This document shows positions 48,560 through 52,527 of a stretch of 64,000 nucleotides of DNA, one piece after another (position 1 is the first letter of the stretch; every line of letters begins with the position of its first letter). The stretch is from an uncultured bacterium (GTDB taxonomy: Bacteria; Armatimonadota; Hebobacteria; CAIYQO01). The stretch spans positions 25,346-89,345 of the forward strand of contig CAYYJR010000001.1 in NCBI GenBank assembly GCA_964472305.1, read 5' to 3'. Under the pieces are notes generated by a model. That model searched no databases, was not told the DNA's origin, and saw only the letters and a program-made list of their open reading frames with translations. Both the position numbers and the translations under genes were made by a program.

Positions 48560-49726
48560 ATGCTCGATTACGGCCTGACCGAAGAACAATTATTTATCCG
48601 CGACTGTGCTCGCGAGATTGCCGACAAAAAGATCCGTCCCGTCGCTGCCGAGTATGACCGAGAAGAGATCTTCCCGTGGGACGTGGTGAAGGCACTTGCC
48701 GCCGCCGACCTCTGCGGGGTATACATCGACGAGAAATATGGCGGCCTGGGCGGCGCCACACCCATCATGAACATGGTGCTGGTGACGGAAGAGCTGTCCA
48801 AGGCGTGCGGGGGTATTTCGCTGGCCTTCGCCGCCACCGGGCTGGGTACGATTCCCATTATTGTGTCCGCTTCCGAGGAACAAAAGGAAAAGTATCTGCC
48901 GGACATTGCCGCCGGGAAGAAACTGGCGGCCTTCGGCTTGACCGAAGCCAACGCCGGCTCCAACGTGGCGGGCATGCAGACGCGCGCGGTGAAAGACGGC
49001 GACGACTACATCCTCAACGGCACCAAGCAGTGGATCACCAACGGCGGCGAAGCGGAAATTTACACGGTCTTCGCGGTCACGAATCCGGAAAAAGGCGCCC
49101 GCGGCGTCTCCGCGTTCATCGTGGAACGGGGCACGGAAGGCTTCACCTTCGGCAAGAAGGAAGATAAGATGGGCATCCGCGCCAGCGCCACCCGCGAACT
49201 AGTGTTCCAGAACTGCCGCGTACATAAGAGCCAATTGCTGGGCCGCGAGGGCACCGGCTTCATCACCGCGATGAAGACCTTCGACCTCTCGCGCCCCGGC
49301 GTCGCCTCGCAGGCGGTGGGCATCGCCTCCGGCGCCCTCGATCTGGCCGTCGATTTCGCCAACAACCGCAAGCAGTTCGGCGTGCCGGTCTCCAGCTTCC
49401 AGGGTCTGCGGTTCTATATGGCCGACATGGCGATGAAGGTGGAAGCCGCGCGCGCGCTGGTGTATGCCACCGCCCGCCACATCGACAGCCATCCCGGCGA
49501 GCGCTACACGCTCTACTCGGCGATGAGCAAATGCTTTGCCTCCGACGTGGCGATGGAAGTCACCACCAACGCCGTGCAGGTGTTCGGCGGCCATGGCTAC
49601 ATGCGCGAATACCCGATTGAAAAATACATGCGCGATGCCAAGATCACCCAGATCTACGAAGGCACTAACCAAATCCAACGCGACGAAATCGGCCGCGCGC
49701 TCATCCAGGAGTTGCACAACCGATAA
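48560..49726 (+). CDS. Acyl-CoA dehydrogenase (short/branched-chain type)
   Basis: 388 aa from ATG 48560 (MLDYGLTEEQ...); ACAD motifs (GLTEANAGSNVAGMQTRA, QWITNGG, QVFGGHGYMREYPIEKYMRDAKITQIYEGTNQIQR). Confidence 0.9.
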   Translation: MLDYGLTEEQLFIRDCAREIADKKIRPVAAEYDREEIFPWDVVKALAAADLCGVYIDEKYGGLGGATPIMNMVLVTEELSKACGGISLAFAATGLGTIPIIVSASEEQKEKYLPDIAAGKKLAAFGLTEANAGSNVAGMQTRAVKDGDDYILNGTKQWITNGGEAEIYTVFAVTNPEKGARGVSAFIVERGTEGFTFGKKEDKMGIRASATRELVFQNCRVHKSQLLGREGTGFITAMKTFDLSRPGVASQAVGIASGALDLAVDFANNRKQFGVPVSSFQGLRFYMADMAMKVEAARALVYATARHIDSHPGERYTLYSAMSKCFASDVAMEVTTNAVQVFGGHGYMREYPIEKYMRDAKITQIYEGTNQIQRDEIGRALIQELHNR

Positions 49727-49948
49727 GGTTGCGGATTCACGCGTCATAACGGATGGGGCGGGGCAACCCGCCCCGTTCGCGTTTGGTGGTGCATAAGCTG
49801 AGGATTCGGCTTCCTTATCATTATTGTCAGTATTTCGATATCGAGTGGGCAAAACCGGTGTGCCGGAGCGCGAAACGGGGAACGTTGTAGGAAAACACCG
49901 GCGATAGAACGGTCGGTAGGTAGCGTCGTGTGCGGTAATGGGGGCGGC

Positions 49949-51277
49949 ATGCGAGTCGGCATCATCGGAGCGGGTCCGGCGGGTACGGTTTGCGCGCTCA
50001 CGTTATTGCGCGAAGCAGCGCTGCGCGGGCAGCAGCACGAGGTGTTGCTGTTCGACCGGCGCTCTTTTGCGCAGGCCGGTCCGCGCGGATGCAACATGTG
50101 CGCCGGCGTCATCTCCGCCACGCTGCTGACCGTGTTGACCGACCTCGGCGCGCAGGTACCGCCGGAACTGGTGCAGCGATACGTTGACAGTCACTATTTT
50201 GAAACGCGTTCCGGCAGCGCGCACATTCCCCGCGATCCGTTATCGACGATCTGTACCGTCTTTCGCAGCGCCGGTCCGCGCGGCGAGGCGGCACACGTCG
50301 AGCAGAGTTTCGATCAACTGCTGTTGCGCACGGCGCAGGCTGCCGGTGCCCGGCAGGTGAATGCCATGGTGGAAGATGTCAGCCTGCCCACCACCCCAGA
50401 TGGGCCGTACCAGTTGCACACCGCAACGGGCGAAACATACGCGGTGGACGTGCTGGTGGGCGCATTCGGGGTGAACAGCACGCTGCCCGCGAAATTCGAA
50501 GCGCTGGGATTCGGGTATCGGCGACCCGACAGCTACCACGTCTGCCAGGCGGAGCTGCCGCTGGATGACGGATTCATCGACAGCGCCTATGGCGGCGAGA
50601 TCAAGATCTTTTCCCTCGGCCTTCCCGGCATTCGCTTCGGCGCCCTGGTGCCGAAACGACAGCATGTCACCGCCACCGTCATCGGACGCGACTTGCACCT
50701 GCCCGACTTGCAGCGTTTTTTGAATCACCCGCGCGTGCGGCGCCATTTCCCGCCGGGCTGGGAGATGCCCCCGGTCTGCTGCCACTGCCATCCGCGGTTG
50801 CCGGTTACGGCGGCGCGTCATCCGATCGCCGATCGCCTGCTCATCATCGGCGACGCCAACATCGCGCGGTATCTGAAAGGCGGCATCGAGTCGGCGTTTT
50901 TTACCGGTGCGCTGGCAGCAGAGATGATCCTGGCCGGCACGCTTAGCCGCACGGAACTGACGCGTCACTTCCTGCGTCCCTGTCACGCGAAATACCTGTA
51001 TGACAATCTTTATGGCAAGCTGCTGTTCGCCTGCAATGATCTGTTCTCGCGGATACCGGCGCTGGCGCGCGCGAATATGCGGCTGGTCGAACGTGAGCGG
51101 CAATATCCGCGATGGGACGATCGCCGGCATACCCGCATGCTCTGGCATATTTTCACCGGCGAGGCGCCATACGCGCAGATCTTTCGCGAGGCGATCAGCT
51201 TCTCGTTCATCGTGACGATGCTGCTCACGCTGCTCACCCCCCGGCTTGACCCCTCGTTCAACAAGGAGGATAGTTAG
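49949..51277 (+). CDS. FAD-dependent oxidoreductase, geranylgeranyl-reductase-like, with extra Cys-rich motifs
   Basis: ATG 49949 with SD GGGGG; GxGxxG (GIIGAGPAG), C-terminal GDA motif (LLIIGDANIARYLKGGIESAFFTG); additional CNMCAG and CCHCHP motifs. Confidence 0.6.
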   Translation: MRVGIIGAGPAGTVCALTLLREAALRGQQHEVLLFDRRSFAQAGPRGCNMCAGVISATLLTVLTDLGAQVPPELVQRYVDSHYFETRSGSAHIPRDPLSTICTVFRSAGPRGEAAHVEQSFDQLLLRTAQAAGARQVNAMVEDVSLPTTPDGPYQLHTATGETYAVDVLVGAFGVNSTLPAKFEALGFGYRRPDSYHVCQAELPLDDGFIDSAYGGEIKIFSLGLPGIRFGALVPKRQHVTATVIGRDLHLPDLQRFLNHPRVRRHFPPGWEMPPVCCHCHPRLPVTAARHPIADRLLIIGDANIARYLKGGIESAFFTGALAAEMILAGTLSRTELTRHFLRPCHAKYLYDNLYGKLLFACNDLFSRIPALARANMRLVERERQYPRWDDRRHTRMLWHIFTGEAPYAQIFREAISFSFIVTMLLTLLTPRLDPSFNKEDS

Positions 51278-51279
51278 CT

Positions 51280-52527
51280 ATGCTTGGAAACAGCGCGCCA
51301 CTTGGACCGTTACGTGACAGAGAGACCGTCGCCATTATCGGCGCGGGACCGGGCGGATTGGCGTGCGCGCTCACCATCCAGCGTGAAGCGGCGCGGCGCG
51401 GCATCACCGTGCGCACGCTGGTTTTCGAAGGCAAAGACGCCACCCATTACAAGCAGTGTTCCGGGGTGCTCTCGCCACCGCTGCAACAACTGCTGCGTGA
51501 TGAATTCGCCATCGAACTGCCCGCTCTGGTGCAGCGCGAAATTCAAGGATACGTGCTGCATACCGAGGACGCGCGCATTGCGCTAAGCGGGGTAGAGCAC
51601 GGCGGCACGTCGCTGGCGGTGCGGCGTCAGGAGTTCGACACCTATCTGCGGCAATGCGCCCAGCAGCGCGGCGTAGAGTTCGTGCATGCGCGGGTGACGG
51701 ATCTTGAATTTCGCGATGACGGCGTGTGGATTTTCAGTTGGAATGGCACGTATCGCGCGAAAGTGGTTGTCGGCGCCTTCGGGCTAAGCCGCGCGATGCT
51801 CGCCACCCTATCCGCGCGCACGGCCTATCGCCCGCCGGCCGTGCTGGAAACCGTGGTGACGAAATGGCATCCCGGCGCGAACCTTGCGCCCATCCCCGAT
51901 TTACTCGACAACTACATCCACGTCATGCTGCCCGCGTTGCCGCGTATCGAATTCGGCGCGCTCATCCCCAAAGGCAACCACATCGCCGCCATTATCGCCG
52001 GCGAAGGCGTGCGGACCGAGGACATGGATGCCTTCCTGGCGTTGCCGGAAATTCGTATCCTGGCGCCCGCCACGGGGAGCGATCTGGAATATTTCAAAGG
52101 ACGCTTTCCCGTTGGACTTGCGCGCGGCAGTTTCGGCGACCGTTATGTGACGGTAGGCGACGCAGCCGGTCTGGTGCGGCCATTCAAGGGGAAGGGCATC
52201 AACTCGGCGATCATCACCGGGATGCGGGCCGCTGGGGTGATGATGACGGAAGGCGTCTCCGCAGCGGCGTTTCGCACATTTTATCGCCAGTGCGCGGAAA
52301 TTACCGGCGACATTCCTTATGGCCGTCTGGTGCGACGTCTGGCCTGCCTGGCTTCGCATCATTTCTCGCTGCGTCCGCTGGTCCGCCTGGCGCAACAGGA
52401 TCCCGCGCTGCGCGCGTTGCTGTTCGATTGCGTCTCCGGACGCGAAACTTACCGCAACATCGTGCTGCGCCCCGGTAACTTCTCCCTCGCCGTGCGCGTG
52501 GGATTGGCCACCCTCCGCGGACGGTAA
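51280..52527 (+). CDS. FAD-dependent oxidoreductase, geranylgeranyl-reductase-like (tandem paralog)
   Basis: ATG 51280 with SD AAGGAGGA, 2 nt after the upstream stop; GxGxxG (AIIGAGPGG), GDAAG motif (VTVGDAAGLVRPFKGKGINSAIITG). Confidence 0.65.
   Translation: MLGNSAPLGPLRDRETVAIIGAGPGGLACALTIQREAARRGITVRTLVFEGKDATHYKQCSGVLSPPLQQLLRDEFAIELPALVQREIQGYVLHTEDARIALSGVEHGGTSLAVRRQEFDTYLRQCAQQRGVEFVHARVTDLEFRDDGVWIFSWNGTYRAKVVVGAFGLSRAMLATLSARTAYRPPAVLETVVTKWHPGANLAPIPDLLDNYIHVMLPALPRIEFGALIPKGNHIAAIIAGEGVRTEDMDAFLALPEIRILAPATGSDLEYFKGRFPVGLARGSFGDRYVTVGDAAGLVRPFKGKGINSAIITGMRAAGVMMTEGVSAAAFRTFYRQCAEITGDIPYGRLVRRLACLASHHFSLRPLVRLAQQDPALRALLFDCVSGRETYRNIVLRPGNFSLAVRVGLATLRGR

Follow-up and report, generated by a model that had tools for sequence, protein, structure and literature searches.

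A conserved pair of paralogous flavoproteins, one carrying a four-cysteine site, in an uncultured Armatimonadota bacterium: a candidate two-flavin reductase

We analysed a 64,000-nucleotide stretch of DNA (hereafter the window) from an uncultured bacterium of the Armatimonadota (assembly GCA_964472305.1, contig CAYYJR010000001.1, positions 25,346 to 89,345), and in particular two adjoining genes, A and B, for flavoproteins that resemble geranylgeranyl reductases (GGRs). A preliminary description of the same DNA had pointed to three co-directional flavoenzyme genes with the last two separated by 2 nt, to the motifs CNMCAG and CCHCHP in the middle one, and to a glycosyltransferase gene converging on them from downstream; all of these features are present. 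On the plus strand, an acyl-CoA dehydrogenase (ACAD) gene extends from its ATG at 48560 to a stop codon ending at 49726, and is followed by A (49949-51277, start ATG at 49949, 442 aa), the four-cysteine (Cys4) subunit with a flavin adenine dinucleotide (FAD)-binding fold of the p-hydroxybenzoate hydroxylase (PHBH)/GGR type, and by B (51280-52527, 415 aa), a paralog of A and the GGR-like subunit. The glycosyltransferase, of the GT4 family (Pfam Glyco_trans_1_4), is encoded on the minus strand at 52912-54102, convergent with B. An alternative GTG start is possible for A at 49928; homologues and the database entry P0001 begin at MRVGIIG.

The stop codon of A (TAG, 51275-51277) is followed by the dinucleotide CT and then by the ATG of B, and a spacer of 2 nt implies that the two genes are translationally coupled. 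A Shine-Dalgarno sequence for B (AAGGAGG, 51263-51269) lies inside the 3' end of A, and in related loci the start and stop codons of homologous A-B pairs overlap or abut. G+C content at third codon positions (GC3) is 0.73-0.79; because of these values and of the hundreds of homologues found, these are real genes and no chance open reading frames (ORFs). A and B each match, at 100% identity, a database entry, both entries stemming from a single 452-kb contig.

The extra cysteines of A, described earlier as atypical of the family, proved to be both real and conserved. They are contained in the CNMCAG motif (residues 48-53, with C48 and C51; 50090-50107) and in the CCHCHP motif (residues 277-282; 50777-50794). 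Across 72 A-type sequences sharing 33-65% identity with A, the patterns G47-C48-N49-x-C51-A52-G53 and C278-x-C280 are invariant, as are the GxGxxG and GD motifs, and C277 and the histidines of CCHCHP vary. In a pairwise alignment C51 of A stands opposite C60 of B (codon at 51457-51459), and thus at the position of the flavin-side cysteine of GGRs (Cys47, the 'CGG' motif), whereas C48 is additional. Cys60, the single conserved cysteine of B, lies in the motif NQCxGVLS and is invariant in 44 sequences. B-type proteins have the C51-equivalent cysteine alone and read FKGxFP where A reads CxCxP.

This distribution is close to all-or-none. Among 262 modules recognised by motif patterns in 379 collected proteins, CxxC and CxC occur together in 196, a single cysteine without CxC is found in 63 modules of the B type, three are ambiguous and none shows the reverse combination. 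The pattern therefore indicates that the four cysteines of A (C48, C51, C278 and C280) constitute one functional site. The AlphaFold2 (AF2) model of A is weak only at residues 41-50 (predicted local distance difference test, pLDDT, 73), the C48 loop running up to C51, and in the C-terminal tail, and the low confidence of this loop would fit a missing ligand. The Cys4 site is probably an iron-sulfur (Fe-S) cluster, or else a redox-active or metal site, placed next to the flavin of A.

Conservation of the gene arrangement was assessed in loci of homologues together with 80 metagenome loci, which were reduced to 51 after near-identical loci had been collapsed; gene order was read from tblastn spans. 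The metagenome scan that yielded the 80 loci used an alignment without the dinucleotide-binding motif, and a scan with the full-length alignment gave five loci, three of them irrelevant matches to the generic GxGxxG pattern. The 51 loci comprise 34 with A-B, two with A-A'-B, seven with a solitary A and one with a solitary B; the other seven offer too little sequence for a call. Of the 44 loci with enough flanking DNA, 36 thus have A ahead of B. Around 20 loci, about half of those with A-B, encode the two modules as one polypeptide of ~870-930 aa, and such fusions made up the top 25 matches in an exhaustive library search. In the A-A'-B loci CxC is present in both A-type modules, most of which also matched the CxxC pattern. 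At the same time, the ACAD adjoins A or B in none of the 51 non-redundant loci, including that of the closest relative (L098, 67% identity), and a glycosyltransferase does so in one, at 25% identity.

The conserved unit is thus very probably A plus B, a two-module flavoenzyme in which each module has an FAD site and one has the Cys4 site. ACAD and glycosyltransferase fall outside it and are, with good support, unrelated bystanders. From the gene arrangement, A-B is predicted to be a heterodimer in this organism and, in many other lineages, one continuous chain. The family is of modest size: at E ≤ 1e-30 it comprises 436 clusters (50% identity) among 1.84 billion representatives. Labels of metagenome-assembled genomes (MAGs) place its members in Armatimonadota, NC10, Omnitrophica, Desulfobacterota/Syntrophales, Tectomicrobia and Anaerolineae, as well as in Acidobacteriota, Eisenbacteria, Latescibacteria, Aminicenantes, Spirochaetota and one archaeal bin. 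The closest homologues with a source name come from Armatimonadota/Armatimonadetes.

A and B are full-length paralogs of one another (32% identity, E 6e-35 in pairwise comparison). The top NCBIfam model for both is TIGR02032 (GG-red-SF), with 55.9 bits for A and 97.3 bits for B, in each case below its cut-off of 158.8. Models for MenJ, BchP/ChlP, FixC, QhpG and halogenases score far under TIGR02032: the MenJ model NF045655 gives B 41.5 bits (cut-off 700) and does not list A, and the FixC model PRK10157 gives A 15.5 bits (cut-off 610) and does not figure for B in the best 25 of 32 matching families. Pfam returned generic FAD/NAD-binding matches only for both proteins. When the B-family profile was run against the PDB, the best match was FixC (7koe_C; 63.7 bits, E 1e-16), followed by halogenases at ~47 bits and by the Thermoplasma GGR 3oz2 at 44 bits; a single-sequence search (phmmer) also placed 7koe_C first, with 25.8 bits.

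AF2 models built on the family alignments reached a pLDDT of 94.7 for A and 90.2 for B. Foldseek recovered generic PHBH-fold matches only for A (kynurenine monooxygenase, 3oz2, FixC and Bmp2, with a template modelling (TM) score of ~0.6 and 16% identity). For B, the best match was 3oz2 (TM 0.69/0.72), closely followed by FixC 7koe_C, Bmp2 and 3nix. The closest solved relatives, Thermoplasma GGR and FixC, share only ~17-19% identity (16-19% for the archaeal GGRs), and an extra helical C-terminal region of ~100 aa sets the family apart from GGR.

At the level of motifs B is the more GGR-like of the two. It carries GAGPGG, FGALIPKG, FKGRFP and the GD motif GDAAGLVRPFKGKGI (52156-52170), with GDAAG-x3-P-x2-G-x-GI kept. 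In the residue alignment to 3oz2 its Cys60 corresponds to Cys47, FGALIPKG to YIWVFPKG, and GDAAGLVRPFKGKGI to GDAARLIDPITGGGI. A has GAGPAG but a divergent GDANIARYLKGGIES, which leaves the GGR FAD/GD signature complete in B and partial in A. Neither protein has the YxWxFP(K)G motif as such: B reads FGALIPKG and A reads FGALVPKR, with PK(G) kept and the Trp and Phe replaced. By these comparisons B is GGR-like in its motifs, save for the lost Trp and Phe of YxWxFP, and A is more divergent.

Since both proteins score under the family cut-off, and FixC is the closest solved sequence by profile, we place A and B in the GGR/FixC clade of PHBH-fold FAD proteins and do not regard them as demonstrable GGRs. 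The GGR-like label of the preliminary description, for which classification with family models had been proposed as a check, accordingly stands as far as the best family model and the best fold match of B are concerned, but not as a family assignment. The archaeal GGRs, or digeranylgeranylglycerophospholipid reductases (Thermoplasma Ta0516, 3oz2; Sulfolobus, 3atq/4opx), share with the pair the PHBH-type FAD fold, the family model that best fits both A and B, and the best fold match of B; like them, B has the conserved cysteine, xPKG and GDAAG-x3-P-x2-G-x-GI. They differ in that GGR is a single gene product, whereas A-B is assembled from two paralogous modules, either fused or forming a heterodimer, and in that the CxxC plus CxC site, confined to A, is absent from known GGRs. 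Known GGRs, MenJ and AF_0648 are all single-gene enzymes. In an incomplete literature library we found no description of the A-B pair, of its fusions, of DUF7530, of a combination of AhbD with GGR or of a link between MenJ and the futalosine pathway. What appears to be new is the architecture of a paralog pair or fusion together with the Cys4 site, undescribed for GGR, MenJ or FixC; the fold is a familiar one, and so, probably, is the chemistry.

Genomic context offers a limited number of functional clues. Most neighbourhoods of the related loci were uninformative: 126 flanking proteins included eight response regulators, five histidine kinases, four radical SAM proteins, four multihaem cytochromes, and two each of HemC, URO-D and Cpn60, and the NCBIfam count over neighbours was dominated by redundant two-component models. 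One apparent conserved neighbour cluster (cluster 23) was rejected as an artefact of antisense ORFs; cluster 185 covered a response regulator and a histidine kinase on the other strand. In the proteins P0062, P0082, P0286 and P0298 (L005, 5122-7371) DUF7530, hydrophobic and with multiple transmembrane segments by inspection, is fused N-terminally to an A-type module, and is likely to serve as a membrane anchor or partner of the A-type flavoprotein. A further Armatimonadota locus (L001, 4677-17380) carries an A-type gene on its own (60% identity with A, no B-type gene within 8 kb), directly downstream of a gene for a 165-aa multi-transmembrane protein of no known family.

Quinone biosynthesis is represented by two loci. 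In L086 (6727-17694) a single ORF of 1390 aa joins a B12-binding radical SAM domain to the A and B modules; the radical SAM part is TIGR04072-like ('lipid biosynthesis'; 311 bits, cut-off 360). This ORF comes first in a complete-looking operon for menaquinone synthesis by the futalosine pathway, overlapping the next gene; the operon continues with MqnL/UbiD (656 bits, above cut-off), UbiX, MqnP, MqnE, MqnC and an MTAP-like gene. In L073 an MqnC gene lies 3.5 kb from the A-B pair. Rieske/cytochrome b/multihaem genes lie nearby in ~7 loci. Taken as a whole, the context points to the membrane and to respiratory cofactors, albeit through sparse clues: the membrane-domain fusions, one menaquinone operon and the haem or cytochrome clusters described below.

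Isoprenoid side-chain saturation, which had been suggested for the whole group of flavoenzymes, would be a reasonable function for A-B. In the scheme that we tentatively favour, A-B would be a two-flavin reductase: the Cys4 site of A would take electrons from a low-potential donor, electrons would pass from A to B as the catalytic half, and B would reduce an isolated C=C bond in a polyprenyl compound of the membrane, for which the menaquinone side chain is the most plausible candidate. The enzyme would then work like MenJ of Mycobacterium or AF_0648 of Archaeoglobus, GGR-superfamily flavoproteins that act on the polyprenyl tail of respiratory quinones, and the occurrence of one A-B fusion as the leading gene of a menaquinone operon is in line with this. 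MenJ and AF_0648 differ from A-B in being single-subunit and in lacking a Cys4 site. AF_0648 is a GGR paralog that saturates menaquinone-8 (PMC10821996). A looser parallel is the sterol C-24 reductase of Myxococcota, a GGR homologue and an instance of bacterial GGR homologues recruited to isolated C=C bonds of non-phytyl isoprenoid lipids (PMC12004948); it comes from another lineage and a sterol gene context, and the abstract describes it as one GGR-family protein, with partner subunit and Cys4 site unmentioned.

The lifestyle of the organism fits such a scheme. At 23862-28577 on the minus strand the window encodes an [FeFe]-hydrogenase large subunit with a C-terminal thioredoxin-like [2Fe-2S] domain (NuoE/HydC-type), adjoined by a NuoF-like FMN/Fe-S subunit. 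This is the gene set of an electron-bifurcating hydrogenase and indicates an anaerobic lifestyle, with which dependence of A-B on Fe-S or ferredoxin would be compatible.

A number of observations weigh against polyprenyl saturation by A-B. Besides the sub-threshold scores of both proteins with TIGR02032 and of B with the MenJ model, the precedence of FixC in the profile search and the replacement of Trp and Phe in the YxWxFP(K)G motif, the association with menaquinone rests on two of 51 loci, most neighbourhoods of related loci are silent on function, and haem (Ahb) genes adjoin A-B more often than quinone genes do. Among the window proteins scanned there are no ETF (electron-transfer flavoprotein), ferredoxin, quinone, isoprenoid or haem genes, and the local context gives no hint of function. 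The favoured model also leaves unexplained the fusions of solitary A-type proteins to cyclic nucleotide monophosphate (cNMP)-binding domains that are taken up below.

More speculative still is a generalisation of this model to the whole family. A-B and its fusions may form a hitherto undescribed class of reductases with two flavins and a Cys4 (probably Fe-S) site, in which the A-type module would be a built-in electron input for a GGR-like module, and which could supply the missing enzyme for hydrogenation of menaquinone side chains, or of some other polyprenyl cofactor of the membrane, in anaerobes. Such a class would be spread over phyla known mainly from uncultured lineages, among them Armatimonadota, NC10, Omnitrophota, Desulfobacterota, Aminicenantes and Latescibacteria. 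If the favoured model is correct, GGR-type alkene reduction would here be powered in a new manner, with a duplicated Cys4 flavoprotein module replacing an external ferredoxin or NADPH donor, and a candidate gene would be at hand for the partial saturation of menaquinones, or the saturation of other polyprenyl cofactors, in anaerobic bacteria. To our knowledge, the only known enzymes for saturation of the menaquinone side chain, MenJ and AF_0648, come from other lineages. Menaquinone saturation patterns serve as chemotaxonomic and environmental biomarkers.

The main rival to polyprenyl saturation, which we consider unlikely though deserving of attention, is a role similar to that of FixC and of ETF:quinone oxidoreductase (ETF-QO). 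A-B would then link the menaquinone pool by electron transfer to ferredoxin, ETF or a comparable soluble carrier, without saturating any lipid, and the Cys4 site of A would correspond to the [4Fe-4S] cluster of ETF-QO/FixX. FixC (7koe_C, from Thermotoga EtfABCX) and ETF-QO (2gmh) are membrane-associated FAD proteins paired with an Fe-S centre. The ranking of 7koe_C in both PDB sequence searches and as the second-best fold match of B speaks for this role, as do the fusions to membrane domains and the recurrence of A-B beside quinol-oxidising complexes (Rieske/cytochrome b/multihaem genes in ~7 loci) and beside one menaquinone operon; an ACAD, the classical donor to ETF, is encoded upstream in the window.

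The gene content does not bear this out, however. FixC is encoded with ETF genes, and neither ETF nor a FixX/ferredoxin gene was found among the window proteins scanned or recurs among the 126 neighbours of related loci; the adjacency of the ACAD is unique to this genome. An ACAD-ETF-FixC link was rejected on the two grounds that ETF genes are missing and that the ACAD adjacency is not conserved. The Fe-S clusters of FixC/ETF-QO are carried by FixX, which is a distinct ferredoxin, or by a C-terminal domain, and do not belong to a paralogous flavoprotein. The sequences diverge at informative positions as well: where B has its invariant cysteine FixC has Met/Gly (NVMGGVL), and where B keeps the GGR-type PKG and the P-x2-G-x-GI of the GD motif FixC reads LVNSIHREGSN. 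The PRK10157 score of 15.5 bits is far from the cut-off of that model.

We consider it improbable that A-B is a haem or tetrapyrrole enzyme, acting in or after the sirohaem-dependent (Ahb) pathway, for example in modification of haem side chains or in support of AhbD. In six loci of one clade (L026, L028, L039, L040, L042 and L046) Rieske/cytochrome b-multihaem genes and a gene for an AhbD-like radical SAM protein precede an A-B fusion, the AhbD-like gene immediately upstream of it with an overlap or a gap of tens of nucleotides, and haem genes follow: HemC, CobA/HemD, AhbC, HemB, a fused AhbAB and HemL (in L026 after a two-component system). An independent instance is the solitary A-type gene of L001, which is surrounded by multihaem cytochromes (one of them fused to a cytochrome b domain), ResB/CcsA, AhbC, AhbD and AhbA/B. 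Yet the AhbD-linked fusions, 41-47% identical to A, represent few independent events, most loci, including the window and the closest relatives, have no haem genes nearby, and clusters of haem and cytochrome genes may merely mark 'respiratory' regions of a genome. Moreover, no flavoprotein is needed to complete the biochemistry of the Ahb pathway. As a separate observation, HemC of L026 is fused to a sirohaem-synthase N-terminal (precorrin-2 dehydrogenase-like) domain.

Nor do we attach much probability to a thiol-based role, with the cysteines acting as redox-active dithiols of a flavin-dependent disulfide or persulfide reductase or of a redox sensor. A CxxC next to the flavin, as deduced from the alignment to Cys47 of GGR, is reminiscent of enzymes of the thioredoxin-reductase type. 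Solitary A-type proteins with one or two C-terminal cNMP-binding domains (P0314, P0320, P0323, P0331 and P0338; L007, 355-2145) keep the Cys4 motifs, and P0359 is an A-type protein with a FecR domain, which suggests that some A-type proteins are regulated by sensors or act as such. Two-component genes are also the commonest neighbours (8 of 126), but genes for response regulators rank with the most numerous in bacteria and this count is little above expectation. The fold is of the PHBH/GGR type and not that of disulfide reductases with two dinucleotide-binding domains, and a thiol-based role would not explain why A is so tightly paired with a catalytic paralog of the GGR-like kind.

A lipid or isoprenoid saturation module made up of the ACAD, A and B, possibly together with the glycosyltransferase, had been the model of the preliminary description, which named lack of conservation of the three-gene arrangement as an argument against it. 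The genes are co-directional and adjacent, and all three encode flavoenzymes, but the arrangement is not conserved: among the 51 related loci the A-B pair alone is kept, and a three-gene module therefore fails and can be given very little credence. The close linkage that had been noted holds for A and B, but the ACAD is parted from A by 222 nt that contain a strong GC-rich hairpin. The ACAD itself matches the Pfam domains Acyl-CoA_dh_N, _M and _1 (N-terminal, middle and C-terminal; 107.7, 99.2 and 160 bits, all above cut-offs) and the PDB entries 3pfd, 4l1f, 5ol2_C and 1buc (E 1e-107 to 1e-122), and no NCBIfam equivalog cut-off was reached in the NCBIfam scan. It appears to be an ordinary enzyme of the short/medium-chain (butyryl-CoA dehydrogenase) type that forms its own transcription unit. 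The glycosyltransferase is TuaH-like, with a sub-threshold score of 106.6 bits (NCBIfam cut-off 550).

The hairpin (49750-49779, plus strand; 13 bp with a GCAA loop) begins 24 nt past the ACAD stop codon and is the dominant helix in both the minimum free energy and the centroid folds of the spacer. It is a possible terminator or transcript boundary. No clean T-run follows it, and a simple terminator scan chose a weaker hairpin at 49795-49812 instead. A riboswitch or other leader RNA in the spacer was rejected, with no Rfam match and a fold z-score of only -1.1; no Rfam family was matched anywhere in 48300-54400.

An O2-dependent group-A flavin monooxygenase or a flavin-dependent halogenase is barely credible. 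In its favour, the top Foldseek matches of A include kynurenine 3-monooxygenase and halogenases of the Bmp2/PltA type, the Pfam Trp_halogenase model (PF04820) just reaches its cut-off of 21 bits (21.1 bits, no significant stretch), and some database entries are named 'tryptophan 7-halogenase'. The matches reflect the shared fold only (13-18% identity), however, neither the A- nor the B-family alignment has the WxWxIP motif, most MAGs with the family belong to phyla that are best known from anoxic environments, and this genome has an [FeFe] hydrogenase. Irrespective of function, A and B should be annotated as one enzyme, without the label 'tryptophan halogenase' and without a link to the adjoining ACAD.

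Other genes of the window encode GH95 and GH36 proteins, IleRS, DksA, Lgt, an RluD-like protein, an ABC transporter and an MtaA/CmuA-like protein of the URO-D family (40932-41897). Between the last of these and a phosphoesterase gene lie two adjacent minus-strand ORFs of 619 and 573 aa (42006-45596; GC3 0.80-0.84) with no Pfam or NCBIfam match. The phosphoesterase, a purple-acid-phosphatase-like metallophosphoesterase of 497 aa (46365-47858, plus strand), is followed on the same strand by an ORF of 168 aa (47882-48388) that has a signal-like N-terminus, a Pro/Gly-rich linker and no Pfam match. The C-terminal ~100 residues of this smaller protein repeat the end of the larger one (FHGHDHLFVKQELDG... 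compared with FQGHDHVFARQVIDG...), and the ORF may have arisen by partial duplication.

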